Positions 1 through 22,937 of a stretch of DNA of 30,165 nucleotides are shown one piece after another. The translations under genes were made by a program, and so were the position numbers. The stretch lies in NCBI GenBank assembly GCA_046759445.1, contig JBHICG010000041.1, positions 1 through 30,165 on the forward strand, given 5' to 3'. The stretch is from Candidatus Scalinduaceae bacterium. Its GTDB lineage: Bacteria > Planctomycetota > Brocadiia > Brocadiales > Scalinduaceae. Under the pieces are notes generated by a model that saw only the letters and a list, made by a program, of their open reading frames with translations, was not told the DNA's origin and made no database searches. Position 1 is the stretch's first letter, and each line of letters starts with the position of its first letter.

Positions 1-55
1 ATAGAGCGACGGTTTCCTAAACCGTAGGCCAGAGGTTCGAATCCTCTCGGGCGTA
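1..55 (+). tRNA. tRNA-Arg (anticodon CCT), 5' end outside window
   Basis: D-arm end ATAGAGC, anticodon arm ACGGT-TTCCTAA-ACCGT, T-arm AGAGG-TTCGAAT-CCTCT, acceptor 3' strand CGGGCGT-A; CCA not encoded. Confidence 0.93.
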
Positions 56-148: not shown

Positions 149-781
149 TTACTTTTTGCTAGGATACCAAAATGCCCAGCTTTTGCTTTTTTCTATTACA
201 GATGGGAATTGTGGACCTGTTGGACAATCATATGAGCCATCATATGTATATTTTCCCAGTGTTTTATGCAAAATAATTTGCCCTATCGGTATGCCAGGGT
301 AAAGAACGATTGGCACTTCACCTTCATTTATAATTTCTAATGTGATACAACCCTTAAAACCTGGATCAACTTTTGTTGCTGTAGCAACGATGAGACCCAT
401 TCTACCCCAAGTTGACTTTCCACTTACATAGCACATTAAACCAGTGGGCACTTTGACATATTCAAAAGTGGACCCTATTATAAGCTGACGTGGATGCAGT
501 ATAAATTGTTCGTGAAAGTTTATCCTTATTTCCTCTTGGTATTTTCCTATATTAGTTTTTAGGTTTTTTTGATCAGCAACATCAAGAATAGGGAAAGTTT
601 GTTTTCTCATTACTATAAATTCATTTCCTAACCTTACGTCAATAGAGCATTCATCAATTGAGTCTTCGAAATCGATTAGGGGAGTAATGATTAAACGCTC
701 TTTAATATCAGGCTTCTCCATATATGCAAATATTTCACCTTTGCTAAGAACGCCACCCCCTTCCGGCACTTTATTATCCAT
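149..781 (-). CDS. dcd: dCTP deaminase (trimeric dUTPase-like fold)
   Basis: SIDVRLG, GKSTWGRMGL (cf. GRSSxARLGL), VDPGFKGCITLEIIN, LYPGIPIGQI motifs of the Dcd family. Confidence 0.9.
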   Translation of the reverse strand: MDNKVPEGGGVLSKGEIFAYMEKPDIKERLIITPLIDFEDSIDECSIDVRLGNEFIVMRKQTFPILDVADQKNLKTNIGKYQEEIRINFHEQFILHPRQLIIGSTFEYVKVPTGLMCYVSGKSTWGRMGLIVATATKVDPGFKGCITLEIINEGEVPIVLYPGIPIGQIILHKTLGKYTYDGSYDCPTGPQFPSVIEKSKSWAFWYPSKK

Positions 782-784
782 GTC

Positions 785-2257
785 TTACGTTTCTCCTATT
801 TTAAAATCATCTTCGATGCCTGCAAATTCAATCGCTTTGAGTGTTAAGCGGTTCATCCTATCCCTTAATTCTAAAATATCTTTATTAAATGTGCCATCGT
901 TAGTAAAAATATCATTTTCCCATGAAACTCTATGAAACCAGGCAGCATTTATGATTTCTACTATGGAAGCAGTTTCTCGGTGCTTAACAGATGGCTCGTA
1001 TGCATTTGGTGGGATTCCATTATTTATTCTCTCTATAAGATGAGGTAGGTGTCTATATAAAGAATCAGGAGTTATTGAATTGCTTAATAATATAGTTCTA
1101 AATTCCACGGTTGCGGTAGAAATGTCATTCAATATTTGCTTATATGCTATAGAGAGGATTGGGTCTTGATCAATCTTTTCTCTGTCACATTTATTATCGC
1201 TTAACCTTTTTATTAGATCAAATCTAGCGTTTACTTTCTGGCAAATGCTATTATTTTCAAAATTTTCGCTTTTTAAAGGGAAAAATGTTCCATGGTGTTC
1301 AATTATTTTGAGAATCTCACGAATTCGCATACGCCACGGTGGGTAAAAGTTGTTTTCTAACCTCGGAATTGAGTCTAGATCGTCTTGCAAAGCTATTTCC
1401 CATGTAGAAAACAAAACTGCAGGACCAAATAACATGGTGCCTATAATATCTGCTAATAACTCCTCTAATCCTCTCTTCCATGCTTCAATTGCAGTTTCAA
1501 GTGCCAATTGAGTTCGCTCTTGTATTATTACTGGAGTGAAAAGATTGTCAGGTGGCAAATCATCTTTCACCACACTATTTATAATTTGTTCTCGATTGTT
1601 GCTGTTAAATAACTTATCTAGTTCATTTGTAAAAAAGTTTTGTGAGAAAAGATGTCCAATTTCATGACCTAGCAGACAGTGAAGTAAAATATTTTTTCTT
1701 TCTAGGTATGGAAATGAGATGATATGAAAAGGTTCTGTCATGTTTTTTAATACATCTTCTAAATTTTCATGTTCACCAGAAATATCATCTTGGAACTCAT
1801 AAAGCATGTCATAATAGGCTTTCTTTATATCTTTAGTAACAACAGTATAATTATACTTCCATTGAGGTCTAAGCATGACTGTTGTGCTTGGTATAAGATT
1901 ATTTGCCAGCTTGGCAAAAGGTTTGATGAGACTCCAAGGTAACTTCCGTGTTGTAGCACCATCAACATAACGTAAATGCGCTGCCAGCTCTTTGACGATT
2001 ATATCAGCATCGCGTAAGCGTGTAATACAAGTCAATATTTCTTCATTACTACCGTCCCATGGTATTGAATTATATATTGATTTAACAGCAGTTTCCAAGT
2101 AACTGTATATTTTAGAAAGTGTCTTTGAAAGTTTAACAGGGGCTTCTGAGGCGTAGTTACGCGAAAGTAAATCTTGACATTTCTCTGCAGTTACTTGACA
2201 GCGGGATATTATCTCAAGCGTATATCCTTCTACAACTTCACGTGAGTAATGTGACAT
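785..2257 (-). CDS. hypothetical 490-aa protein with zincin/gluzincin-like metallopeptidase motif
   Basis: HEIGH at residues 198-202, downstream EELLAD (265-270) and YPPWRMR (305-311); 3-bp gap to dcd. Confidence 0.75.
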   Translation of the reverse strand: MSHYSREVVEGYTLEIISRCQVTAEKCQDLLSRNYASEAPVKLSKTLSKIYSYLETAVKSIYNSIPWDGSNEEILTCITRLRDADIIVKELAAHLRYVDGATTRKLPWSLIKPFAKLANNLIPSTTVMLRPQWKYNYTVVTKDIKKAYYDMLYEFQDDISGEHENLEDVLKNMTEPFHIISFPYLERKNILLHCLLGHEIGHLFSQNFFTNELDKLFNSNNREQIINSVVKDDLPPDNLFTPVIIQERTQLALETAIEAWKRGLEELLADIIGTMLFGPAVLFSTWEIALQDDLDSIPRLENNFYPPWRMRIREILKIIEHHGTFFPLKSENFENNSICQKVNARFDLIKRLSDNKCDREKIDQDPILSIAYKQILNDISTATVEFRTILLSNSITPDSLYRHLPHLIERINNGIPPNAYEPSVKHRETASIVEIINAAWFHRVSWENDIFTNDGTFNKDILELRDRMNRLTLKAIEFAGIEDDFKIGET

Positions 2258-2747
2258 TTGGGGTGAGATTCTTTTTTGACAGGAGTGTGTCTGTTTTGGG
2301 CATATAACGTTCCTGTTGTATGTCTTCCCTTAAAGCGTTTCCTAATATCAGGAAAAATTCGTTGGGCTTGGATAAATCTAAATTATCTTTTTCTTTTTTC
2401 TTCTCAAGCTGTTTTAAAATTTCTAACAGGTCTGAAAAGTAATCTGTTATAATGTTTTTATCTTTGTCCGTTAAATCTAATTGCTTGACGGTTACAAGAG
2501 CATATCCATACATTGTGATCTCTTTTTGTGTTGGTGGTTGCAGTCCACCATTTTCCTTCTTTCCTTCCGCAAATGCAGAACCTTCTTTAATTCCAGAAAG
2601 AAGATTTATTCCCCTATTTAGAATTTTTACCTGTACACCTGTTAACTCTTTTCCTCGTTTAGCAGCTTGAAGAACTTGTACAACTTTAGTAGTAAGGACA
2701 AGATAATTATATCGTCTGCTTTCTTCAGATAAGTTTAAAGGTGACAT
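2238..2747 (-). CDS. hypothetical 169-aa protein, probably helical
   Basis: Long ORF overlapping the next gene by 20 bp; sigma70-like promoter upstream. Confidence 0.75.
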   Translation of the reverse strand: MSPLNLSEESRRYNYLVLTTKVVQVLQAAKRGKELTGVQVKILNRGINLLSGIKEGSAFAEGKKENGGLQPPTQKEITMYGYALVTVKQLDLTDKDKNIITDYFSDLLEILKQLEKKKEKDNLDLSKPNEFFLILGNALREDIQQERYMPKTDTLLSKKNLTPNVTLLT

Positions 2748-3361: not shown

Positions 3362-3562
3362 ATGGCAAATGGGACTGTTAAGTGGTTTAGCGATTCAAAG
3401 GGCTTCGGCTTTATTTCTCAGGAGAACGGGGACGATGTCTTTGTGCATCATACTGCAATCCAGGGCGAGGGATTTAAGACTCTTTCAGAAGGAGATAAAG
3501 TAGAGTTTGAAATCGAACAAGGCCAAAAGGGCTGCAAGGCCTCACAAGTTGTCAAATTATAA
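3362..3562 (+). CDS. cold-shock protein (CspA family), 66 aa
   Basis: [12 protein letters not shown]1 KGFGFI, RNP2 VFVH; true start is the ATG at 3362 after GAGGGGG, not the upstream TTG of the ORF track. Confidence 0.96.
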
Positions 3563-3668
3563 ATATATATAAAGACGTACTCATATATTTTACTGTATAA
3601 TTTTTCAAAAGAGAGTTTTATATAAAAATATAGAGTAGTTGTAAAAATATTATTATAGTGATGACGTG

Positions 3669-3710
3669 AAAGCCCCCAATATCTATAAAAGGGTGTTGGG
3701 GGCTTTTTTT
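3669..3710 (+). terminator. intrinsic terminator after csp
   Basis: AAAGCCCCCAATATC ... GGTGTTGGGGGCTTT stem followed by T-run. Confidence 0.85.
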
Positions 3711-4159: not shown

Positions 4160-4288
4160 ACTGTCGAGTAAACACTTTAAAGCAATCTTAAATAAACAAG
4201 AATTATGTAGAAAGTTGCCTTCATTAATCCTTAATAGAATCAAACACTTAGTAATAAGCAGGAAAAGTAATAACACTTTTGAAAGGAA
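4160..4288 (+). repeat. conserved element right-end sequence, copy 1
   Basis: Homologous to 6071-6195: TGTC(G/A)AGTAAAC, a 22/28 identical block, identical TAATAGAATCAAACACTT, TAACACTT, AAAGGAAT; contains IHF-consensus AATCAAACACTTA at 4238-4250. Confidence 0.85.
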
Positions 4289-4316
4289 TTCCTAAACCGT
4301 AGGCCAGAGGTTCGAA
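4289..4316 (+). repeat. att-like direct repeat of tRNA-Arg 3' half (copy 1)
   Basis: TTCCTAAACCGTAGGCCAGAGGTTCGAA identical to 14-41. Confidence 0.95.
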
Positions 4317-4649
4317 CTCACTCGCTCACCTTAACCAATAACGCAAATCTTATTAATTGTTCTAATTTGTGTTTTGTGTGTCTCGTTTACACACGCTAAG
4401 TAGATAGATACTCCTCCATTGGACTATGCACAGTTGTATTTTAATGTATAAAAATTATACAGGTGATATAATTTTATACATGCATTAGGCAAAAGAAGAA
4501 CCACCACTTCCTGATGACACACTAAAATGAATTCTGAACGGTTTTCTAAAAGGCAAGAGAATATGGAAAATAGGTTAATACGAGCATAGCAGGTATGTTT
4601 AGTTTTTTGATAGATAAAGTACTACGTAGAAACAATAATTAGATAAAAA

Positions 4650-4665
4650 AGGAACGCATTTTGCA
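4650..4665 (+). promoter_or_regulatory. putative sigma54 (-24/-12) promoter
   Basis: AGGAACGCATTTTGCA = GG-N10-GC, close to TGGCACG-N4-TTGC; palindrome at 4444-4481 upstream. Confidence 0.35.
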
Positions 4666-4834
4666 TGTATCATATAGATACAAAAAAAGACGTAGTTGTA
4701 ACTGCATCAAGTCATTTAAGAACGCATGAATAAACTTGCGCAACGGTATATCACATGTTGATGAAGATAAATAAAAAGAAAAAAATAGTGCTGTTGTTGA
4801 GCTTAATCGCTAGAAAGGAAATGAGGGGGTCTAA

Positions 4835-5857
4835 ATGCTAATATCTGGCAAAAAAAAGTTTGTCCAATCTCCATTTGTTTCTGAAGATGAATTAAAAAAA
4901 ATGGTTATAGAAAGTGCTGATTACTTCTTTGGGCCGAGTGCTTTTTGTCTCTCGAAAGAGCTAATTTCATCCAGAGAAGGTTTCGAAGTGATTCCAGATG
5001 GATTTGCGGTTGATATTTCAAACCGACAATGGTTTGTCGTAAATGCTACACTCGCCAAGCACAATGTTTGGAGTCATATGGCTCCACAAGTAGCAAAGCA
5101 ACTTATAGCCGCTGATCGATCAACCACAAGACAACTGCTCATTGAACTCTTTGTCCAACAGGTTCGAGAGAATAATAAATTGATAGAATATTTTTTTGAA
5201 GAAGGTATTCATATGGAAGATAAAAAGGGTGTCCTAGAGAAAGACATTCGTGGTGTCTTTGGAGAAATTTTCGGGAAGAGTCCTATTTTGGGGATGACAA
5301 TAGATTCCATATCCAACGATTTAAGGGATTGGGTTGCAATTTTAAAGGTAAATGTAAGATTATGGATAGTTAAGAGATACGTCGAATTTGGAAATACCGA
5401 AAATATAATGTATGAAATTCCGGAGGAATATCGTCCTGAATTGGATACGACAGAGGAATCTAATTCTTCTGAAAATGGGATTACTCGATATGATGTCACA
5501 TTGGATAACTTGATCCAAACAGGACTGCTTTCTGTAGGAGAAAGCCTTTACATGATATATAATCCTAATAATAACAATAAAAGAAAAAAATATGATGCTA
5601 CGATACAGGACGACGGATCTCTACAAGTTCTCGGCAAGGCATTCAGCAATCCTATCTATGCAGCATTATATGGAATTCAAGACTCTGGTAGTAATAGAAA
5701 AACTATAGATGGGTGGAATAGTTGGAAAAATTCGAAAGATCGCACATTGGCAGATTTAAGAGATGAGTATTTGAAGAATATTAGAAAAGCTAAAACAATT
5801 GAAGATGATGCAAAGTCAGAGGAAAAAATGACCGTCAGCCAAGTAGAGTACCAATAA
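4835..5857 (+). CDS. protein with N-terminal restriction-endonuclease-like (PD-(D/E)xK) domain and C-terminal RAMA-like domain
   Basis: EDELKKMV...IPDGFAVD...WFVV...H..PQV pattern; C-terminal TLDNLIQTGLL..GE...ATIQDDGSL...FSNP..AA...DGWNSWK...TLADLR pattern; RBS GAGGGGG. Confidence 0.65.
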   Translation: MLISGKKKFVQSPFVSEDELKKMVIESADYFFGPSAFCLSKELISSREGFEVIPDGFAVDISNRQWFVVNATLAKHNVWSHMAPQVAKQLIAADRSTTRQLLIELFVQQVRENNKLIEYFFEEGIHMEDKKGVLEKDIRGVFGEIFGKSPILGMTIDSISNDLRDWVAILKVNVRLWIVKRYVEFGNTENIMYEIPEEYRPELDTTEESNSSENGITRYDVTLDNLIQTGLLSVGESLYMIYNPNNNNKRKKYDATIQDDGSLQVLGKAFSNPIYAALYGIQDSGSNRKTIDGWNSWKNSKDRTLADLRDEYLKNIRKAKTIEDDAKSEEKMTVSQVEYQ

Positions 5858-6070
5858 CAGCACAAAAAAGTATCAAAGTCAATTAACAAAAAGATGGATC
5901 AGTAAATAGGTTAGCTTCCTCGTCTTTACTCTGCTCAAATTAATAACCTCCATTAATACATTCCCTTATATTCACAAAACATAAAACAGGGTAGTTCATG
6001 CATCAAATTGCAAAATTAATGCAGTACTATATAGCGGAAATCACATAATATCTCCCCTTATTGTCAACTA

Positions 6071-6195
6071 ATTGTCAAGTAAACGTTCCAAATCACTCTC
6101 AAATAGATAGGAATTATAACAAGGGCTATTCTTACTTCTAATAGAATCAAACACTTTACACTAAACAAGTAAAGTGTTAACACTTCTCAAAGGAA
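6071..6195 (+). repeat. conserved element right-end sequence, copy 2
   Basis: Homologous to 4160-4288; tandem TTGTCAACTAA/TTGTCAAGTAA at 6061-6082; 10-bp inverted repeat 6150-6159/6169-6178. Confidence 0.85.
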
Positions 6196-6236
6196 TCCTA
6201 AACCGCAGGTCATAGGTTCACATCCTCTCGGACGTA
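6196..6236 (+). repeat. att-like degenerate repeat of tRNA-Arg 3' half (copy 2)
   Basis: 35/41 identical to 15-55. Confidence 0.92.
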
Positions 6237-6408
6237 ACACATTTATAATTACCCACCACTGACATTCAATAATATCCCTTTTATTGTAACTAAAGTTTTA
6301 GTCAGAAAATCCGATATTAAGGAAAGTTAACATTTTAAACATTATTTATTGATAATAAGTCTCAAGCCCCAAACTCGTCTAGACAAAACTATAAAAAGGA
6401 GAGATAGG

Positions 6409-6624
6409 ATGAGAATCAATAAATTTTCTCGGAATTTATATAACAACAAAGAATCCGTTGAAGAAACCATCGAAAAGCAGGAAAAGATATTTCACAAGAT
6501 TTTAGAAGAACAATATACTTTACTATTGCAATTAATTTTAAAAACACATGATACCTGTTTCATAGAACAATCTTATCGGAAATACAACCCGGGCATGGAA
6601 GATCGTGGGATTCTAGAAGAATAG
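6409..6624 (+). CDS. small hypothetical protein (71 aa)
   Basis: ATG preceded by AAGGAGAG; no recognisable motif. Confidence 0.4.
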   Translation: MRINKFSRNLYNNKESVEETIEKQEKIFHKILEEQYTLLLQLILKTHDTCFIEQSYRKYNPGMEDRGILEE

Positions 6625-6874
6625 TTTTATAAAACTTTGAAAAACACATATTATACACACAAAGTATCCCCCCACATCGTATTCATTTCATAAATAACTA
6701 TAATCCCTTAGTTTCCATTTTCGCATATTATCTTTAAAACCTCAATTTTTTGCAGAATCTGGATTTGGACAAAACAACACATTTGAGATTAAACCAAAAA
6801 CACTTTTACGCCATTAAAACAAAATATCATTTTAAGATAACATTTTATATTATGCAATTCGTGAGGTTTAATTC

Positions 6875-6904
6875 TTGACACAAGTCCCTGGTATTTAATA
6901 AAAT
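6875..6904 (+). promoter_or_regulatory. sigma70-type promoter
   Basis: TTGACA-18 nt-TAAAAT upstream of TPR gene. Confidence 0.45.
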
Positions 6905-6961
6905 TAAGGTTTTGGAAAAACCTTTTTATGTACATAAAAGTTAATAACATTCTAAATCGTT

Positions 6962-10545: not shown

Positions 10546-11865
10546 TTAACCTGTATTCCCCGCAACATTTACGGATCTAAAATAAAAAGGTGGCACACAT
10601 AAACTACCATGCCATTCAGACTTATCACCGATATCTATTATATTATTAAACACATCAAAAACATTCCCTGCTATCATGCAGTCCTTTACTCTTCCAACGA
10701 TCTCACCATTTTCCACAAGATAGCCTAAATCAATATTTACAGAAAATTCTCCTGCAAGGACATTATTCTGGCCTCCGCCAAGAACCTGATCCACAAGTAT
10801 ACCACGCTTTATGTCTTTAATCATATCTTCAAATTTCATTTTTCCGGATTCAACTATAACATTAGAATTACCCGGGGAAGGTTGAGAAGCAAAACTCCTT
10901 GTCCCATTTCCGGTAGATTTAGCATTCATAATACCTGCAGTTTGTAAATCATATATATAGTTCTTGAGTACGCCTGATTCAAAAAGAGGTGTCCTCTGAG
11001 CGCGCACCCCCTCACCATCGCAAATGTAGCTTCCATCAGCATAATCTACCGTTGAATCATCATATATATTGATTCTTTCATCTATTATTTTTAGTCCGAT
11101 TCTGCCCGTTAGCGGAGAAGCGCCTTTTTGAACCATTTTCCCATTACATCCAGTCTCAAATGTTGCTAGCAAAGTTCCAATAGCCTTAGAAGTAAAAACT
11201 ACCGGATAACTACCAGTAGCAATTTCAACCTCCCTTTCTGCTAATTTCAAATCTTGAAGAGCCTTTTCAGTATGTTTTGTAAGATCTTCAACTAACTTTG
11301 CAGAACTTTCACCTTCCCCGATCCATAATAGCCCCTTGTCCTTAACCAGTAATATATCAACGCCTATCCCAAAGGATGTGAACTGAGTACATACATCTAG
11401 GCCACTTGAGTTAATTAGCCTACTCAAACCAATACTTTTTCCGATACTGATTCCACATTCATAATTTGAATTGGTAGATAAGGCTTTTGCTATTTCGTCC
11501 TTGCCGGCTTGTATGCCCTTTTCAATGGGATAGTTTACTACTTTTTCATCAAACAATTTGATATCAATGAATTGATTTTTTGGTTGAAACTCTAACTTCG
11601 CTTCCTGTCCAAATTTAGCGCTTTCCATTGCATTTGAAACGACCTGTTCTGGTTTTCTTAAATCTGTGGTGCTTGAAAAACCAATTTTCCCATCTTTAAT
11701 TACCCGCAGGCCAATTCCTCTGATTGATTTTGTTTGAACGTTCTTTAATTTATTATTTTCGAAGCTGATTGACCTGGATTCACCTTCTTCATATATAACT
11801 TCCACCGAATTAGAATTTTTTAAAGCCAAATCGAGTATCTTTTCCTCTATCTTATTTTCCATCAT
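10546..11865 (-). CDS. pmbA: TldD/PmbA family protein (PmbA/TldE subunit)
   Basis: GIGLRVIKDGKIGFSST, DGEG, STGN, GEFSV; lacks HExxxH. Confidence 0.88.
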   Translation of the reverse strand: MMENKIEEKILDLALKNSNSVEVIYEEGESRSISFENNKLKNVQTKSIRGIGLRVIKDGKIGFSSTTDLRKPEQVVSNAMESAKFGQEAKLEFQPKNQFIDIKLFDEKVVNYPIEKGIQAGKDEIAKALSTNSNYECGISIGKSIGLSRLINSSGLDVCTQFTSFGIGVDILLVKDKGLLWIGEGESSAKLVEDLTKHTEKALQDLKLAEREVEIATGSYPVVFTSKAIGTLLATFETGCNGKMVQKGASPLTGRIGLKIIDERINIYDDSTVDYADGSYICDGEGVRAQRTPLFESGVLKNYIYDLQTAGIMNAKSTGNGTRSFASQPSPGNSNVIVESGKMKFEDMIKDIKRGILVDQVLGGGQNNVLAGEFSVNIDLGYLVENGEIVGRVKDCMIAGNVFDVFNNIIDIGDKSEWHGSLCVPPFYFRSVNVAGNTG

Positions 11866-12968
11866 TCTCTAATATTGAAAGACGGTTTATCCCGTTTTTC
11901 ACCAGGTTCTAATTTCTCAACTTTTATCCTTAAACGTAAATCATTTGTGCTATCCGCATGGGCTAATGCATTTTCATAACTTATCACTTTCGACTTAAAA
12001 AGATTGAATATTGCCTGGTCAAAAGTATGCATACCTTCCTGGCTGCCTTTTGCCATGACCTCTTTAAGTGTTTCTATTTCCCCTTTAAACATCAAATCCT
12101 TCACTCTTGGGGTATCTAATAATATTTCAAAAGCAGCGACTCTTTTCTCGTCAATCGTAGGTATAAGTCTTTGAGAAATTATTGAGCGAAGATTGAGTGA
12201 AAGCAAAAGATATATTTGATCATGTCTTTCTGAGGGGAAAAAATTAATAATACGTTCAATTGCCTGATTGGCATTGTTAGCATGTAATGTACCCAAACAT
12301 AGATGGCCTGTTTCAGCAAAGCTAATGGTAGCATCCATTGTTTCCGTATCCCTGATTTCGCCTACAAGGATAACGTCTGGCGCCTGTCTAAATGTATTTT
12401 TCAAAGCATTTGCAAAAGAATGTGTATCTATTCCCACTTCCCTTTGAGTTACTACCGACATCTTATGTCGATGAACATATTCAATCGGATCTTCAATAGT
12501 GATAATATGATCTGGAGAATTTGAATTTCTATGGTCTATCATTGCGGCAAGGGTTGTGGATTTCCCCGAGCCTGTTCCTCCAACCACCAATACAAGACCA
12601 CGTTTTGTCATTACGATGTTTTTTAAGATAGGAGGTAATTCCATCTCATCTATGGTTTTGATGATATGTTTAATCTGGCGGATTACAATACTTATGCTAT
12701 TCCTTTGATATAATATATTCATCCTGAAACGTCCAAGAGATGGATAAGTTATGGCAAGGTTCATCTCTTTTTCCTTGAGAAAAGTAGTCTTCTGCTTCTC
12801 GCTCATTATTGAAAAAGCAAGTTTTTCGGTATCATCGGGCGTCAGGGCATCTTCAGATACAGGTGTTGCCTTGCCTTGCACACGATAGGCGGGTGGAAAA
12901 CCTACAGTGAGGTAAACATCTGATGCATCTAATTTGACCATCTTACCTAAATATTCTTTTATATCCAT
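11862..12968 (-). CDS. pilU: type IV pilus retraction ATPase PilU
   Basis: GGTGSGKST, TIEDPIE, RQAPDVILVGEIRD, TLHANNANQA. Confidence 0.92.
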   Translation of the reverse strand: MDIKEYLGKMVKLDASDVYLTVGFPPAYRVQGKATPVSEDALTPDDTEKLAFSIMSEKQKTTFLKEKEMNLAITYPSLGRFRMNILYQRNSISIVIRQIKHIIKTIDEMELPPILKNIVMTKRGLVLVVGGTGSGKSTTLAAMIDHRNSNSPDHIITIEDPIEYVHRHKMSVVTQREVGIDTHSFANALKNTFRQAPDVILVGEIRDTETMDATISFAETGHLCLGTLHANNANQAIERIINFFPSERHDQIYLLLSLNLRSIISQRLIPTIDEKRVAAFEILLDTPRVKDLMFKGEIETLKEVMAKGSQEGMHTFDQAIFNLFKSKVISYENALAHADSTNDLRLRIKVEKLEPGEKRDKPSFNIRE

Positions 12969-12977
12969 TTCCTATAT

Positions 12978-14021
12978 TTAAGCCTTTATTATATTGGGGT
13001 TACTAAGAAGGTTTTTTATACTATCCAACGAAACACTTTCCTTCTCATAAAGTTCTTTTAAGGCATCATCCATAGTTTGCATTCCATGCTGTCTTCCCGT
13101 TTGTATGGAAGAATGTATCTGGGCAACCTTTCCTTCTCTAATAAGGTTTCTTATAGCATGTGTTGCAATCATAATCTCTAATGCCACAACCCTACCCTTT
13201 CCATCTTTACGTTTAATTAGACTTTGGCTAATAACGGCTAAAATTGACTCCGAAAACATGGTTCTTATTTGTGATTGTTGTTCAGCAGGGAAAACATCTA
13301 TTATTCTATCAATTGTCTTTGGAGCGCTTGAGGTATGTAAGGTACTTAAAACCAGATGACCTGTTTCAGCAGCAGTTATGGCCAAAGAAATTGTTTCTAG
13401 GTCTCTCATTTCTCCAACTAATATCACATCCGGATCCTCTCTTAAAGCAGATCGTAAGGCATTCGCAAAACTTTTGGTATGAACGCCTAACTCTCTTTGA
13501 TTAATAAGAGCCTTCTTGGGTTCATATTCGAACTCTATGGGATCTTCTACTGTAATTATGTGAACCTTATCTTCTGAATTAACAAACTCAAGCATAGATG
13601 CTAATGTCGTTGACTTGCCACTACCCGTTGGTCCTGTAACCAGGACTAACCCTTTATTTTTTCTTGCTATGTCTGCAAGTATATTTGGAAGCCCCAGGTC
13701 TGCTAGACTGGGTATTATAAAAGGTATTGTCCTGAAAACTATCGCTTCTCCCCTGTTTTGAACAAAGGCGTTGACCCTATAGCGTGATGTCTCACCAAAT
13801 GAAATAGCAAAATCCAGCTCCTGAACTTCTTCAAAAATTTTACGTTGTCGGTCATTTAGTATATCATACAATATAGTATGAACATCCTCTTTGCCCAAGG
13901 GTAAAGTGTCTAATTTCTGTAAATCACCATCTTTTCTGACCATCGGTGGCTCGCCAGAACTAATGTGTAAGTCTGAAGCGTTCTGATCTTTTGCAAATTT
14001 GAGTAATTCTGTAATATCCAT
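12978..14021 (-). CDS. pilT: type IV pilus retraction ATPase PilT
   Basis: GPTGSGKSTT, ALREDPDVILVGEMRD, AIRNLIRE motif. Confidence 0.95.
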   Translation of the reverse strand: MDITELLKFAKDQNASDLHISSGEPPMVRKDGDLQKLDTLPLGKEDVHTILYDILNDRQRKIFEEVQELDFAISFGETSRYRVNAFVQNRGEAIVFRTIPFIIPSLADLGLPNILADIARKNKGLVLVTGPTGSGKSTTLASMLEFVNSEDKVHIITVEDPIEFEYEPKKALINQRELGVHTKSFANALRSALREDPDVILVGEMRDLETISLAITAAETGHLVLSTLHTSSAPKTIDRIIDVFPAEQQSQIRTMFSESILAVISQSLIKRKDGKGRVVALEIMIATHAIRNLIREGKVAQIHSSIQTGRQHGMQTMDDALKELYEKESVSLDSIKNLLSNPNIIKA

Positions 14022-14123
14022 GGACTTAATCCTTTCTCTTTATTACTTTACTCTGTTTCAATAATCATTAAAAATAATATGTTAGTTAACATGAAAATTA
14101 TCTATTGGCCTATTTGTTTTTTC

Positions 14124-15485
14124 TTATCTACCACCGATTGTTACGTTTCTTATTCTAATATGTGGACCACCATCGCTTACACGCAAGGGGGATTGTCCGC
14201 CTTTACCGCAGCCACCAAGCCCTCCAAAAAAGACAAGGTCATTTCCAATTGCGTCTATATTCATTAATGTCTCAAATACATTACCCGTCAAAACCACATC
14301 ACGAATCTTTTCACAGAGTTTTCCACCTCTTATATGATATGCTTCTTCTGCACTAAACGTAAACATCTCTGTATTTGTTTGGCCTCCAAGTGAACCTTTT
14401 GCATATATGCCTTCACCTGCGCTTGCTAACATATCTTCAAATGTCCAACTACGGGGTTCCATATATGTGTTAGTCATGCGCACAATTGGCTCGTGGGTAT
14501 AACTAATTGCTCTGGAATTTCCTGTCGGATCTTCGTCCATTTTTGCCGCTGTTTCTCTTGAATGTAACCGACTTGCTAAAATACCATCCTTTATTAGATA
14601 TGTTTTTTGTGACGGCGTTCCCTCGCTGTCATATTTATTGTAACCCGCCTCTCCTTCTAATGTACCATCGTCTACAATACACAAATCATCTGAACCAAAA
14701 CGCTTTCCAATTTTCATAACCTCACGAAGTTTCTTGTTTTCATATATAAAATCCGCTTCACTCAAATGTCCGAATGCCTCGTGTGTAAATACGCCACAGA
14801 GTTTTGGGTCAACAATTATGGTGTATTTGCCGCCTTCTACTGGTTTTGCAGAAAGTAAATCAACGGCTCTCTTTGTAACCTCTTCACACTTTTCCTCAAA
14901 GTTTTCGACTTTTTTGTATCCTCTAAGGTCGCCAACGGAATTATAGGCTTGCTGTACGTTCATACCGTCCTTGGCAATCGCTAAAACTGAGACTCCACAG
15001 AATATGTTCTCAGAAACTATAAAACTGCCTTCCAGGTTTGCGAAATAAAGTGTACTATGAGAATCCATATACCTGACATTGGATGTTTGAATTTTTTTTG
15101 AAGACAAGACTATGTTATTGTATTTATGGCACAATTCATGTTTGTCAGTCAATGATATATCTGCAGGATCAACTTCAACCTTAGTTTTGGCAGTATCGTT
15201 TATAACCTTAGTCTTTGCAAGCGAAACTTTCTTACCTCCAACGAGTTTAGCCTGCTCACATGCAATTTCGACGTAGCGTGGAAGATTCTCAATATCATTA
15301 AAAGCCACAAATCCCCATCCGCCCTTAACGAGAGCACGAACACTACCCCCAATGCTACTGCTTTCACCTATATTCTCCAATTCCTTACCTACGTAAGTAA
15401 TACCTGTTCCCCTTCCCTCCTGTATACGTATTTCTATATGGTCGGCATTTGCCGATTTTAATGCATTTTTTATTAATTTTTCCAC
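14124..15485 (-). CDS. tldD: TldD metalloprotease subunit
   Basis: HEAFGHLSEAD, RMTNTY, CGKGGQ; GTG start. Confidence 0.93.
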   Translation of the reverse strand: MEKLIKNALKSANADHIEIRIQEGRGTGITYVGKELENIGESSSIGGSVRALVKGGWGFVAFNDIENLPRYVEIACEQAKLVGGKKVSLAKTKVINDTAKTKVEVDPADISLTDKHELCHKYNNIVLSSKKIQTSNVRYMDSHSTLYFANLEGSFIVSENIFCGVSVLAIAKDGMNVQQAYNSVGDLRGYKKVENFEEKCEEVTKRAVDLLSAKPVEGGKYTIIVDPKLCGVFTHEAFGHLSEADFIYENKKLREVMKIGKRFGSDDLCIVDDGTLEGEAGYNKYDSEGTPSQKTYLIKDGILASRLHSRETAAKMDEDPTGNSRAISYTHEPIVRMTNTYMEPRSWTFEDMLASAGEGIYAKGSLGGQTNTEMFTFSAEEAYHIRGGKLCEKIRDVVLTGNVFETLMNIDAIGNDLVFFGGLGGCGKGGQSPLRVSDGGPHIRIRNVTIGGR

Positions 15486-19080: not shown

Positions 19081-20174
19081 TGATTGCCGATCGAATGCGG
19101 GGGTTTGAAGCATCTGGGATAAGGAAAGTTTTCGATCTGGCACAAAAGATTAAAGACCCAATTAATCTTAGTATTGGGCAACCTGATTTTGATATTCCCG
19201 AAGAAGTCAAGAAAGAAGCAATCCAGGCAATAGAAAGGGGGATTAATAGATACACAATAACACAGGGTATTCCAGAACTAAGAGAAAAGATCCTCGAGAA
19301 AGCAAGAAAAGAACAGGGTATTAAGGGTGAAAGCATAATGGTAACGTCAGGGGTTGCAGGCGCCCTGACCCTTGCTTTTCTGGTTCTCATAAACCCCGGA
19401 GATGAGATCCTTGTACCAGACCCATACTTTGTGTCATTTAAGCACCTTATAAAACTATGCGGCGGTAAAATAAAATTTGTTGATACATATCCAGATTTTG
19501 AACTTACCCCCGAACGTATCCTGCCTCACATAACCACACGTACCAAGATTCTTATCATAAACAGCCCATCCAATCCAACAGGTGTAGTTTGTAATCCACA
19601 ACATCTCATTGACATCTGTGATATTGCCAGGAAACATAATTTAATAATCATCTCAGATGAGATATATAGAAGATTTGTATATGATATACACTATCAAAGT
19701 ATTGGAAAATTTCATGAAAACACGTTAACGTGTAACGGATTTTCCAAGTCGTATGCAATGACTGGATGGAGATTAGGTAGTGTAATTGGCCCGGCAAAGA
19801 TTATTAATGAAATGATGAAACTCCAGCAATACACCTATATCTGTGCTCCTTCATTTGCGCAGGTAGCGGGTGTAAAAGCCCTGGATATTGATATCAGTGA
19901 GTATATAAAAGATTATGAGAAGAAACGTGATCTGGTCTATAATGGCCTTAAAGGGCGTTACAGTATAACCAAGCCTGACGGCGCCTTCTATCTCTTTCCT
20001 CAAGCACCCTGGGGCACAGATGAAGAATTTGTTACTGAAGCCATAAAGAGGGATTTGTTAATCATACCCGGTAGTGTATTTTCTGAGAAGAATACTCACT
20101 TCAGGTTGTCATACGCTGCACCACTTGAGACCCTGGTACGTGGGATTGAAATACTAAACTCCATGGTCTCCTAA
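19080..20174 (+). CDS. PLP-dependent aminotransferase class I/II
   Basis: INLSIGQPDF, NSPSNPTG, SDEIY, GFSKSYAMTGWRLG. Confidence 0.94.
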   Translation: MIADRMRGFEASGIRKVFDLAQKIKDPINLSIGQPDFDIPEEVKKEAIQAIERGINRYTITQGIPELREKILEKARKEQGIKGESIMVTSGVAGALTLAFLVLINPGDEILVPDPYFVSFKHLIKLCGGKIKFVDTYPDFELTPERILPHITTRTKILIINSPSNPTGVVCNPQHLIDICDIARKHNLIIISDEIYRRFVYDIHYQSIGKFHENTLTCNGFSKSYAMTGWRLGSVIGPAKIINEMMKLQQYTYICAPSFAQVAGVKALDIDISEYIKDYEKKRDLVYNGLKGRYSITKPDGAFYLFPQAPWGTDEEFVTEAIKRDLLIIPGSVFSEKNTHFRLSYAAPLETLVRGIEILNSMVS

Positions 20175-20788
20175 AAAACTGGTATACTACAATTTTGTAA
20201 AATGTACGTTATAGCGCCTTCAGGCATGAATAATGAACGTTTATAATCTGCTGTTTCAGGCGCCCTGTCACCGGTTTCAGGATTTCGCTTGCCTTTCAAT
20301 GAATCAAACATCCTGTTTAAGACCTCATGGCCCGGCGTTACCACAAGAAATCGATAGGAATACTTGCCCTCTCGTTCATTATTGATTTTATTGAAAAACT
20401 GCCAGATTATAAGAGCAGTGAGCACCCAAGTCTTTCCCGTTCCTGTCGCCATCTTCAGGGCATATTTAGGGAACTGGATTGCTTCAACCTCCTGTTTTAG
20501 AGGGAGATGTTCCAGAAGGGCTTCAGGGGCTACGCGTTCAAATAATTCTTGTAATGTTGTAGCTTGAAGTATCTCATGACAGTAAACTATCGTCTCTATA
20601 GCGTGCCTTTGACAATCATAGAAACATTCTCCAATGTCTTCATCCCTCTTAAACCAGTAATTGAAGAGTTCAAGTGTGGTCTGAGTAACACCATTCCAGC
20701 CCTGATCAGCCCACGCCTTCACCTCACCTTCAAGGGCTTTTGCCAGGTACATCTGGGAAAAGGCTTCTTTATTCTTTTTCATAATCAT
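20171..20788 (-). pseudogene. type III restriction enzyme Res subunit, C-terminally truncated
   Basis: Q..AIETIVY, Walker A KMATGTGKT; only 205 aa, no DExH or nuclease motif before colliding with the aminotransferase end. Confidence 0.8.
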
Positions 20789-20792
20789 ATTC

Positions 20793-20945
20793 TCACGAAC
20801 TTTCCTTGCCTGTTGCTGTCAACAATTTCATCAATTTGTGAGCAATGAAAAGTTTATTTCTTTTCCTGTCTGTCGCTTCATGAAGAATTTCAGTTTCAAC
20901 AAGTCTTAATGCATTTCCCTGTTGGTGAATTTGCAAAATCTTTGT
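20793..20945 (-). pseudogene. fragment resembling the C-terminal HTH of a Fic-family protein
   Basis: Frame reads ...ALRLVETEILHEATDRKRNKLFIAHKLMKLL, like the Fic C-terminal LxxxGILxExTGxxRNRxF; no start or Fic motif. Confidence 0.45.
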
Positions 20946-21119
20946 GTTTCAATATCCATACCTCTATTGCAGGATTCTGCAATTACTATAGCTGTTATTT
21001 CAGGATACGGCATAATGCTGCAATAACACAAATCCTTATTGATGTATTTTGCAATAAGAAATTACTTTATTGATGGATTTACTATTATCAATCTATAAGA
21101 CAATCATTAATAAAAAATC

Positions 21120-22937
21120 TTACCCTTTCATTTCCACTGTTGCTCCTGCATCATTACCAAATATATCTACCACACGAACAGCGATTATGCGATTCTGTTT
21201 CTTTTCTAAAGTTTCTTTTGCCACAACGGGAACTGTTTTAGCTTTCTTACCATTACCTCTAAACGCCTGCCATTGGCTTTTGAAGGTGAAGTCATCGTAA
21301 TCCCAGTCAATAGCCCAGTAATCTATCAGCACGGCAAAGTTGTCTTTGGCAATTTTCATTAAGGCCGTATAGTTCTCCTGTCCCTTCTTTGAGGTCTGGC
21401 TTACGGGAATGTCCATCAAGACGTAGCGTTGTATTGAAAGGCTTATCTCAACTTTTTCTGTTCCTGAAACAAGTTCAGGACAGGCCTTTACCTTTGGAGG
21501 ATTCATCCTCAGATAAGGTCTTTCATAGAATTTTACCTTTTCCGAAAGGGCTTCGATATCTTCTTCTGTCTTTGCTTTTTTGAGATAGTCATATATATCA
21601 GGTGGGATATCCCTGCTTTCGATATGAATTTTAAGCTTGTTTTTCAGTGCACTTAAACGTGATTCAAGGGCTTGATAGTAATTATATTCATAATCCCAAC
21701 CAAGAATAATCAATTGCCTGTATCCTCTGCCATCAAGCTTTTGAGCCTGCAGAGCTAATTCTTCGGCCTTCTTTGCCGTAATGGGACGGTCAGGATAACC
21801 CACATATACGAGTTTTTCTTTCCCATCTTCTGCTTTCCTAATACCAAGACCGCTTGTCCTGTCTCTGGGAGTTGCCCCATACAACTTCAGAATAAGATGC
21901 TGCATCTCCCAGATGCGTCCACCGGTAAGATAAATCATCTCACGTTGATAATTGCCGATGTTTTCTATAAGGAATGGCTTGGCTCCCATCTCTACAAGAC
22001 GCGCTCGTGTAACCTGAATACCAACCTTACCCAGTTCATAACCGATCCAGCGTCTGCCGAGTCTCTCGGCAACAGCAAGGGTTGTTCCGGAACCACTGAA
22101 TATGTCGATGACAAAATCACCCTTGTTTGAAGAAGCCTCTATTATCAGTTCTAATAATTCTTCTTTTTTTTCAGTATCATATCCTGTTTTGAAAGAATAA
22201 GCTATTATATCATCCCATATAGTATCTCTTAAATCCTCAACACTTGCTGGAATTAGATATTCAGGTTTTCCAGTTCGTGGATTTGGCCTTAAAACCCCTT
22301 GTTCTATTGCCTCATTTGCCTTTTCTTTAGTCCATCTCCAATGATTATCTACTGAAGGTTTAAATCCAAATAATTCATAATCCATTCCACGCCTGTATCC
22401 TGCAGCTTCAAATGAATGCCATCTTTCTTGTCGTTTAATTTTCTTCGTCGGCGGGATTATTAAATGTTTTTCACTTTTAGCATAAAAAAAAACAACATCG
22501 TGACCAAAATTTAAAGATTTAACCCTCGCTCTTTCTCTAACATTTTTCCTAATTCTACGGACAATTATCTCATTTCTGAAGTTATCTTTCCCAAAAACTT
22601 CATCAGCAATATTTTTTACATAATGACTTACATACCAGCCTATATGCATGTAAATAGCTCCATCTTCCGCCAACAATCTCTTCATCAACTGCAACCTTGG
22701 ATAAAGCATATCAAGATAGGAATCGGTCCCTCCAGCCCATGTATCCTTATAAGCAAGGCGTTCAATAACCGAAGGCTCTTTGGTAAATTCATTTCCCTCA
22801 ATAGTCATTTTGTGTGAATAGTCGGCCTTGCTGTCAAATGGCGGGTCGATGTAGATAAGATTAATCTTCCCTTCGTAACCCTGTGCAAGCAGCGCCTGCA
22901 TGGCAAGGAGGTTATCACCCCAGATGAGGCGATTCAT
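21120..22937 (-). CDS. type III R-M DNA adenine methyltransferase (Mod-like), probably N-terminally clipped
   Basis: NRLIWGDNL, YIDPPF (motif IV), DIFSGSGTT (motif I), C-terminal VRVVDIFGND; frame stays open upstream to ~23057. Confidence 0.9.
   Translation of the reverse strand: MNRLIWGDNLLAMQALLAQGYEGKINLIYIDPPFDSKADYSHKMTIEGNEFTKEPSVIERLAYKDTWAGGTDSYLDMLYPRLQLMKRLLAEDGAIYMHIGWYVSHYVKNIADEVFGKDNFRNEIIVRRIRKNVRERARVKSLNFGHDVVFFYAKSEKHLIIPPTKKIKRQERWHSFEAAGYRRGMDYELFGFKPSVDNHWRWTKEKANEAIEQGVLRPNPRTGKPEYLIPASVEDLRDTIWDDIIAYSFKTGYDTEKKEELLELIIEASSNKGDFVIDIFSGSGTTLAVAERLGRRWIGYELGKVGIQVTRARLVEMGAKPFLIENIGNYQREMIYLTGGRIWEMQHLILKLYGATPRDRTSGLGIRKAEDGKEKLVYVGYPDRPITAKKAEELALQAQKLDGRGYRQLIILGWDYEYNYYQALESRLSALKNKLKIHIESRDIPPDIYDYLKKAKTEEDIEALSEKVKFYERPYLRMNPPKVKACPELVSGTEKVEISLSIQRYVLMDIPVSQTSKKGQENYTALMKIAKDNFAVLIDYWAIDWDYDDFTFKSQWQAFRGNGKKAKTVPVVAKETLEKKQNRIIAVRVVDIFGNDAGATVEMKG
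21462..21485 (-). repeat. 24-nt palindromic insertion in frame within Mod (ACPELVSG)
   Basis: TCCTGAA-ACAAG-TTCAGGA perfect inverted repeat plus CAGGC. Confidence 0.55.

Follow-up and report, generated by a model that had tools for sequence, protein, structure and literature searches.

In the AvcD-AvcI system, a deaminase is restrained by an antitoxin. Here we describe a three-gene cassette of 2.6 kb, situated near the start of a 30,165-nucleotide stretch of DNA from a Candidatus Scalinduaceae bacterium (assembly GCA_046759445.1, contig JBHICG010000041.1; this whole stretch is hereafter called the window), that encodes a small helical protein of 169 residues, a zincin-like protein of 490 residues (the Zn protein) and a deoxycytidine triphosphate (dCTP) deaminase of 210 residues (Dcd). 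A described counterpart that is alike in its proposed outcome is the defensive dCTP deaminase of Tal et al. (10.1101/2021.04.26.441389), which is a single polypeptide of 576 residues, its N-terminal domain being a kinase and its C-terminal domain a zinc-dependent cytosine deaminase. This enzyme is held inactive until infection, upon which deoxycytidine nucleotides are deaminated and phage replication is starved.

Set against the protein of Tal et al. and AvcD, the cassette would serve a similar end, the deamination of deoxycytidine nucleotides to the detriment of phage replication, and its control logic may parallel the nucleotide-depletion defense of the former, unrelated protein. The means differ. 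Dcd of the window has the unrelated dUTPase fold (PF22769/TIGR02274) and carries neither a kinase nor a zinc cytidine-deaminase domain, a contrast that a preliminary description of this DNA had drawn and that the kinase and cytosine deaminase domains of the Tal et al. protein bear out. Furthermore, Dcd is accompanied by the zincin-like protein and a helical subunit. The preliminary description had not recognized the trio as a named system; PADLOC-DB 2.0.0 likewise contains no family for the 490-residue or the 169-residue protein and none of its named systems matched, and full-text literature searches, which did not cover bioRxiv supplements, returned no description of the three proteins together. 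The term “DCD” in PMC12839542 refers to an unrelated domain and is named only in the reference list.

The three genes form a self-contained, horizontally mobile three-protein module. Our tentative reading is that it is an undescribed nucleotide-pool defense or abortive module with Dcd as the effector, a view that we consider nearly as apt to be right as to be wrong.

Conservation of the three genes as a unit

One genome per species was scanned, which gave 23 loci from many phyla. At 19 of these, Dcd is encoded directly downstream of the Zn gene or is fused to it (7 fused). Three others (L001, L012 and L018) end no more than about 200 nucleotides past the Zn gene, and a tblastn search found no Dcd in the DNA that remains there; as these are end-of-contig loci, linkage holds at 19 of the 20 loci where it can be tested. 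The check proposed in the preliminary description, whether homologs of the 490-residue protein are linked to dcd elsewhere, thus turns out in its favor, with many fusions besides. The gene for the small protein lies directly upstream of the Zn gene at 20 of the 23 loci, as detected by profile search, and an unassigned open reading frame (ORF) of 175-196 residues occupies this position at the remaining three.

Similar relationships are seen from the side of each protein. Among 247 homologs of the Zn protein there are 22 Zn-Dcd fusions and one fusion of the small protein to the Zn protein (P0126), and in every one of the 58 longer proteins with this type of Dcd, the Zn domain is present and further Pfam domains are absent. 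By an indirect comparison of match tables, at least 41 of the 120 Dcd homologs listed have a longest contig equal in length to that of a Zn match. Over 18 complete modules, pairwise identities among the Zn proteins correlate with those among the Dcd proteins (r = 0.87) and the small proteins (r = 0.93), with 0 of 2000 Mantel permutations reaching either value, although common organismal ancestry contributes to these correlations. Mean identity across the same modules is 0.53 for Dcd, 0.34 for the Zn protein and 0.24 for the small protein. The three genes are not chance neighbors, as each has many homologs and their order is kept elsewhere.

For the Zn protein and Dcd of the window alike, the nearest relative is found in Candidatus Scalindua rubra (L001), at 94% identity. 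In that locus, the small ORF (378-728, 116 residues) and the C terminus of the Zn protein (encoded at 829-2256) diverge from their window counterparts despite the 94% identity elsewhere, and it is likely that this reflects frameshifts or assembly errors near the end of the contig.

A distinct clade of dUTPase-fold dCTP deaminases

The assignment of the 210-residue protein as Dcd, made in the preliminary description, is upheld by profile scores above the cut-offs: 133.4 bits against TIGR02274 (curated cut-off 92.8) and 124.5 bits against PF22769 (cut-off 27), with Pfam yielding DCD/dUTPase-fold models only. The sole PADLOC match to this protein, a 2TM effector at an E value of 0.043, is at chance level. 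In the Escherichia coli enzyme, S111, R115 and E138 have catalytic roles. These residues align to S123, R127 and E149 of the window protein in the HMMER alignment with E. coli Dcd (1xs1, E value 5e-24). Residues S123, R127, D139 and E149 are each conserved in at least 90% of 140 members of the clade, as are the core GKS.WGR.GL.IATATKVDPGF.GC.TLE, which encompasses the motifs GKSTWGR, DPGF and TLE picked out earlier in the window protein, and a C-terminal Y.G.Y....GP.FP motif.

Comparison with the housekeeping enzymes (E. coli 1xs1 and the bifunctional forms of Mycobacterium tuberculosis and Methanocaldococcus jannaschii) indicates membership of the same family, with the catalytic Ser, Arg and Glu in register. 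The module protein differs from them in forming a separate clade with its own conserved C-terminal motif, in not aligning at the E. coli His121 position, and in being encoded on mobile DNA by a gene tied or fused to that of the Zn protein. Each of its best 120 relatives is at least 52% identical to it. Judged by its sequence, the 210-residue protein is a dUTPase-fold dCTP deaminase belonging to a module-specific clade apart from housekeeping Dcd. All source-named Dcd homologs recovered in these searches are called simply “dCTP deaminase” or its spelled-out form, and with such names, metabolic reconstructions may miscount the module enzyme as housekeeping Dcd.

A zincin-like protein family with conserved catalytic motifs

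The Zn protein of the window has no match among the models of Pfam, NCBIfam, PHROG or PADLOC, yet its family is large. A word-indexed search gave 174 matches and an exhaustive search gave 788 clusters (at 50% identity) at E values of 1e-3 or below, 480 of them at 1e-10 or below. In gluzincins, the third metal ligand is a Glu on a later helix, within an ExxxD or ExxAD motif, the latter being the M48 form. The three motifs on which the preliminary description had based a gluzincin/M48-like layout are present in the window protein: HEIGH at residues 198-202, EELLAD at 265-270 (with ExxAD at 266-270) and YPPWRMR at 305-311. Among 285 family proteins, 16 are fragments without the motif region; in the 269 that could be scored, H198, E199 and H202 are kept in 268, with one degenerate member, and the full set of H198, E199, H202, E266, D270 and R311 is kept in 265. 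The H-E-H triad is also present at all 23 genome loci. Other conserved features of the family are an Arg-rich motif, YPPWRxRxR, and R410.

The same layout is evident in the AlphaFold2 model of the window protein (predicted local distance difference test score, pLDDT, 96.4; predicted template-modeling score 0.93), in which three strands are followed by the HExxH helix (190-208) and then by a long helix (241-277) that bears E266-x-x-A-D270. Large helical domains are predicted on either side of this catalytic core, and the hydropathy profile contains no convincing membrane segment, as expected of a soluble protein. The Zn protein resembles HtpX, Ste24 and BepA of the M48/gluzincin group in having an HExxH helix after a three-stranded sheet and a later ExxAD helix, and differs from them in falling below the Pfam threshold, in having no significant fold match, in being soluble and in its big flanking helical domains.

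The only sensible weak fold matches to the whole model in Foldseek are ZMPSTE24 in the PDB (6bh8_A; probability 0.38, E value 0.79, template-modeling score 0.19-0.25) and phage zincin proteases, such as that of AR9 in BFVD (probability 0.89, E value 0.12). A profile of 126 Zn sequences searched against PDB sequences returned coiled-coil noise alone. In the ESM Atlas the protein falls near unnamed clusters and, at 0.77-0.78, near Peptidase_U49 and M48, which we take as leads and no more. When 100 family members were scanned with Pfam, for which the best 25 of 80 families were considered and all but the top three occurred in a single member each, Peptidase_M48 was the only recurrent weak match (11 of 100 members at E values of 1 or below, best 0.015). 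Peptidase_M78 appeared in two of the 100, at 0.18 or weaker. Peptidase_U49 has no Pfam match in the window protein and is not among the matches listed for the 100 members; since the remaining families are single-member matches, it occurs in at most one of them.

Functional precedents of another kind can be considered here. The Lit protease of e14 is phage-triggered and cleaves EF-Tu. Along with CapP-CapH of CBASS, it offers examples of a zinc peptidase with a small partner or of a phage-triggered switch of immune output, to which the present module might be likened. However, no homology to either is detectable (given the M78 and U49 results above), the small partner in the module lacks a helix-turn-helix, and in the module, peptidase and effector are often joined in one polypeptide.

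A fast-evolving helical subunit predicted to bind the Zn protein

The 169-residue product of the first gene is basic (isoelectric point 9.1) and is predicted by AlphaFold2 to fold as a five-helix bundle (pLDDT 82.6). No Pfam family recurs among 19 members, and neither a PDB fold match nor a usable ESM Atlas match was obtained; in the same Pfam, PDB-fold and 19-member searches there is no sign of a helix-turn-helix or other recognizable family.

Co-folding of the small protein with the Zn protein, carried out with a separate alignment for each protein in three runs and alongside three controls, gave a median ipSAE (an interface score) of 0.82, compared with 0.00 for the best control. Among solved complexes, 116 of 157 reach the mark used for this score, as do 2 of 215 mismatched pairs. 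The runs share at least 64% of their contacts, with partner pLDDT of at least 75, and the predicted interface on the Zn protein comprises helices 70-90, 142-157, 211-226 and 242-261, which flank both motif helices. The modeling supports binding of the small protein to the Zn protein but is not proof of it. For an association between the Zn protein and Dcd, the evidence consists of the fusions.

Patchy distribution and genomic neighbors

The module is patchily distributed across phyla and domains, and is horizontally mobile. The tree of Zn proteins conflicts with taxonomy: an archaeal copy, from a Methanobacteriaceae bin, groups as sister to an acidobacterial copy (support 100/100), the two Planctomycetota copies lie apart, and the Acidobacteriota require three changes. 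As the tree is made up mostly of metagenome bins, some of the taxon assignments may be wrong. Insertion contexts also vary, from the tRNA islet of the window to a site between DDE transposases (L014), a site directly after ftsZ (L022) and one that has a class I/II aminotransferase gene on one side and an imidazoleglycerol-phosphate dehydratase gene on the other (L002). A tblastn search with the Zn protein found no match among 72,556 records of plasmids and 50,697 of phages; within those collections, this disfavors the notion of a phage-encoded module for nucleotide takeover.

Neighbors were surveyed with PADLOC and Pfam over 206 flanking ORFs at 20 loci. In Aporhodopirellula rubra (L023, 380-15884), the module resides inside a DISARM system, between DrmMI and DrmA-DrmB-DrmC. 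At L016 it is beside DruA and two GHKL ATPases, and at L015 it is flanked by a SocA/Panacea pair on one side and a type IIG restriction-modification enzyme on the other. Single or ambiguous hits occur at five further loci, comprising a type I S subunit (L002), a methylase (L010), a UvrD-type helicase (L019), PDC-M21A (L021) and a dGTPase-type HD protein beside ThyX (L017). This context is suggestive of a defense function. At the A. rubra locus, three small ORFs on the opposite strand accompany the module and there is a resolvase gene at the end of the locus.

Several other arrangements recur or stand out. In two Thermoanaerobaculia genomes, the module is immediately preceded by a gene for a deoxynucleoside kinase (PF01712; L005, 6640-7284; L006, 6169-7347), which may or may not be a coincidence in view of the kinase domain of the known defensive dCTP deaminase. 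In Pyrinomonadaceae (L007, L010 and L014, at about 5740-6940), a TauD-family dioxygenase gene and an ORF of 76-83 residues are found upstream of the module, and could represent shared synteny or an extra component. Located 3′ to the fused Zn-Dcd gene of L010 (10586-14470) are genes for a second DCD-like protein (296 residues), a thymidylate-synthase-like protein, an ORF of no known function and an N6/N4 DNA methylase, a set reminiscent of a pyrimidine-modification cluster. As neither of the sister loci, L007 and L014, has this set, it is regarded as a neighbor rather than as part of the module. At L021 (3108-4478), the Zn protein keeps its motif as HELFH, and a 100-residue ORF with no known family comes next, in the place of Dcd.

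Proposed mechanism and alternative explanations

In the mechanism that we propose, the small helical protein, the Zn protein and Dcd would assemble as one complex, in which the Zn protein, held by the fast-evolving small subunit, would be the sensor or switch. A proteolytic or conformational step that frees Dcd activity would be the most likely route of activation. Active Dcd would then turn dCTP into deoxyuridine nucleotides, such that replicating foreign DNA would be deprived of dCTP and deoxyuridine triphosphate (dUTP) would rise. Dcd is cast as the effector because it shows the strongest conservation within the trio and has intact catalytic residues; the Zn protein, cast as switch or sensor, is itself under strict selection at its catalytic residues. 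The scheme starts from gene order, fusions, the conservation of catalytic residues in both enzymes, the co-variation of the three proteins, the predicted interface between the small protein and the Zn protein, the patchy mobile distribution and some defense-island contexts, and from these we infer all of the biochemical steps, the trigger and the direction of control. In its fullest form, it would describe a new immune system of bacteria and archaea, in which a dUTPase-fold Dcd is gated by a dedicated gluzincin-like protein of a new fold family and a fast-evolving helical subunit, and infection releases Dcd, empties the cell of dCTP and floods it with deoxyuridine nucleotides. This is possible, if somewhat doubtful.

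A number of observations weigh against a defensive nucleotide-depletion module. Clear defense neighbors are present at three of the 20 surveyed loci, a raw count given without a background rate and hence suggestive rather than a measured enrichment, and at 12 of the 20 the neighbors are housekeeping genes or belong to no known family, as at the ftsZ site. Genes of nucleotide metabolism near some acidobacterial copies (L005, L006 and L010) fit a metabolic role too, and seven acidobacterial copies form one clade that looks vertical. At L021, the Zn gene occurs without Dcd despite 8 kb of downstream DNA. His121 has a functional role in E. coli Dcd, and its position is paired with a gap or with Ala in the module enzyme, where the HMMER alignment has a segment one residue shorter. 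For the Zn protein, neither the window sequence nor any of the 100 family members reaches the Peptidase_M48 gathering score, and Foldseek of the whole 490-residue model gave no match at an E value of 0.001 or below in the PDB or BFVD; the protein appears gluzincin/M48-like in its motif layout, its peptidase identity is motif-based, and M48 membership is not established. Finally, the interface residues named in the predicted complex include neither 198-202 nor 266, and because the metal ligands are excluded, the model does not demonstrate that the active site is blocked.

Some of these points would be accommodated by a module of pyrimidine-deoxynucleotide metabolism, in which Dcd feeds dUTP or deoxyuridine monophosphate (dUMP) to thymidylate synthesis and the zincin-like and small proteins act as a regulator or as a second enzyme of the pathway. 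Some HExxH proteins are annotated as metal-dependent nucleotide pyrophosphatases, and conceivably the Zn protein could be one, converting dUTP to dUMP, with YPPWRxRxR and R410 available to bind phosphates. Fusions of enzymes in the same pathway are common, which suits the unbroken association of long Dcd proteins with the Zn domain, and the deoxynucleoside kinase, thymidylate-synthase-like and second DCD-like neighbors, the loci that lack a defense neighbor and the seemingly vertical acidobacterial clade can all be read in this way. Nevertheless, we regard a metabolic role as unlikely, given a distribution that is patchy across phyla and domains with a tree that contradicts taxonomy, a window copy that sits in an integrase-less tRNA islet, another copy embedded in a DISARM locus, a small subunit whose fast evolution would be unusual in core metabolism, and a Dcd clade distinct from the housekeeping enzymes, the best 120 relatives all being at least 52% identical to the window enzyme while E. 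coli Dcd is a far weaker match.

The compact, translationally coupled cassette on mobile DNA, with its basic, fast-evolving small partner predicted to bind a neighbor, also invites comparison with toxin-antitoxin-like addiction or stress modules of mobile elements, for which AvcD-AvcI is a precedent. Free Dcd would then be toxic, the small and Zn proteins would restrain or release it, and the benefit would be maintenance of the element. This is distinctly unlikely, considering the lack of any match in the plasmid and phage records and the prediction that the small protein binds the Zn protein; moreover, many such modules are also anti-phage, so that this explanation overlaps with defense by nucleotide depletion. 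It is also conceivable that the wiring is reversed, with the Dcd-like domain sensing a nucleotide of infection, for example a modified dCTP, and the metallopeptidase acting as the effector, which would cut an essential protein of the host or the phage in the manner of Lit. The strictly kept metallopeptidase motif, the ESM Atlas proximity to Peptidase_U49, the Lit family (at 0.78, as a lead only), and the retention of the Zn gene without Dcd at L021 agree with such an arrangement. We consider it very unlikely, since conservation is highest in Dcd, whose catalytic residues are all intact, as would be anticipated for an effector enzyme, and Peptidase_U49 matches at most one of the 100 Zn members scanned.

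If the module is defensive, with Dcd as the effector, immunity by dCTP depletion would have two separate origins, in deaminase folds that are unrelated, in a case of convergence. Coupling of an effector, often by fusion, to a metallopeptidase-like sensor that has a subunit of its own would represent a new control logic, and the module would be the first instance of deaminase-based nucleotide-depletion immunity with a built-in peptidase-type switch. It would also give a function to an unannotated family, that of the Zn protein, whose many clusters have a fold that is predicted with confidence and significantly matches no solved structure. The cassette is small and self-contained, and so the proposal is easily testable.

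Organization of the window

The features of the cassette and its surroundings are collected in the table below. The three co-oriented genes of 169, 490 and 210 residues coincide exactly with those of the preliminary description: the genes for the small and Zn proteins overlap by 20 bp (2238-2257), and a gap of 3 bp (782-784) separates the Zn gene from dcd. The promoter-like sequence that it had placed upstream is likewise present, though as evidence it is weak, because such sites are frequent in AT-rich DNA here (32 observed in the AT-rich 4.4 kb, against 18.2 ± 4.3 in shuffled sequence).

Table. Positions of the cassette, its promoter-like sequence and the tRNA-derived repeats in the window
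Feature	Position	Strand	Remarks
tRNA gene, 3′ part, cut at its 5′ side by the window edge	1-55	+	Rfam RF00005, 41.5 bits, E value 2.4e-6, model positions 18-71
att-like direct repeat, copy 1, within the tRNA	14-49	+	Reference copy of the repeat, 36 nucleotides
ORF of 210 residues, dUTPase-fold dCTP deaminase (Dcd), proposed effector	149-781	-	Third gene
ORF of 490 residues, zincin-like (Zn) protein, proposed sensor/regulator	785-2257	-	Second gene
ORF of 169 residues, small helical protein, predicted subunit bound to the Zn protein	2238-2747	-	First gene of the operon
Promoter-like TTGACA-17-TATTTT	2955 to 2927	-	About 180 nucleotides upstream of the first gene; 10 of 12 positions match
att-like direct repeat, copy 2, far end of the operon islet	4289-4324	+	92% identity to 14-49
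att-like direct repeat, copy 3, end of the second tandem islet	6195-6230	+	83% identity to 14-49

The preliminary description had also located the operon inside tRNA att repeats, and both the Rfam match and the repeats substantiate this placement. The 3′ part of the tRNA gene is the insertion site of the islet. Its anticodon loop, UUCCUAA, read by eye, corresponds to Arg-CCU, and ARAGORN called no tRNA at the window start because the window begins within the gene, which is therefore truncated. With the tRNA adjoining and its 3′ part directly repeated at 92% identity, the arrangement is that of a tRNA-linked island, and the three repeat copies place the operon within the first of two tandem islets, this one measuring 4.2 kb and bounded by repeats of the tRNA 3′ end. 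No integrase or recombinase domain was found in any ORF between 50 and 6960, in either islet. Just before copies 2 and 3 there is another direct repeat of 58 nucleotides (4232-4289 and 6139-6196, 81% identical), from which it follows that one end is conserved between the two islets and that both probably use the same integration machinery.

Other genes in the window can be noted. In the operon islet, a cold-shock-domain gene (3362-3559, plus strand; PF00313, 6.7e-29; PADLOC CSD_V, 3.7e-18) lies on the strand opposite to the operon, beside a strong terminator-like hairpin (3668-3707). The second islet (4325-6194) contains an ORF of 340 residues (4835-5857, plus strand) with a RAMA domain (PF18755, 1.5e-17), the C-terminal part of which matches the PADLOC candidate PDC-S14 (4.3e-11), making it another possible defense cargo at the same tRNA. 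At 20174-22937 on the minus strand, a type III DNA methyltransferase of 605 residues (PADLOC MTase_III, 4.9e-75) is followed by a ResIII fragment of merely 205 residues, and this type III restriction-modification locus looks like a decayed system. Finally, a co-oriented block at 10549-15485 on the minus strand has two PilT/T2SSE-type ATPase genes between two PmbA/TldD-type metallopeptidase genes.

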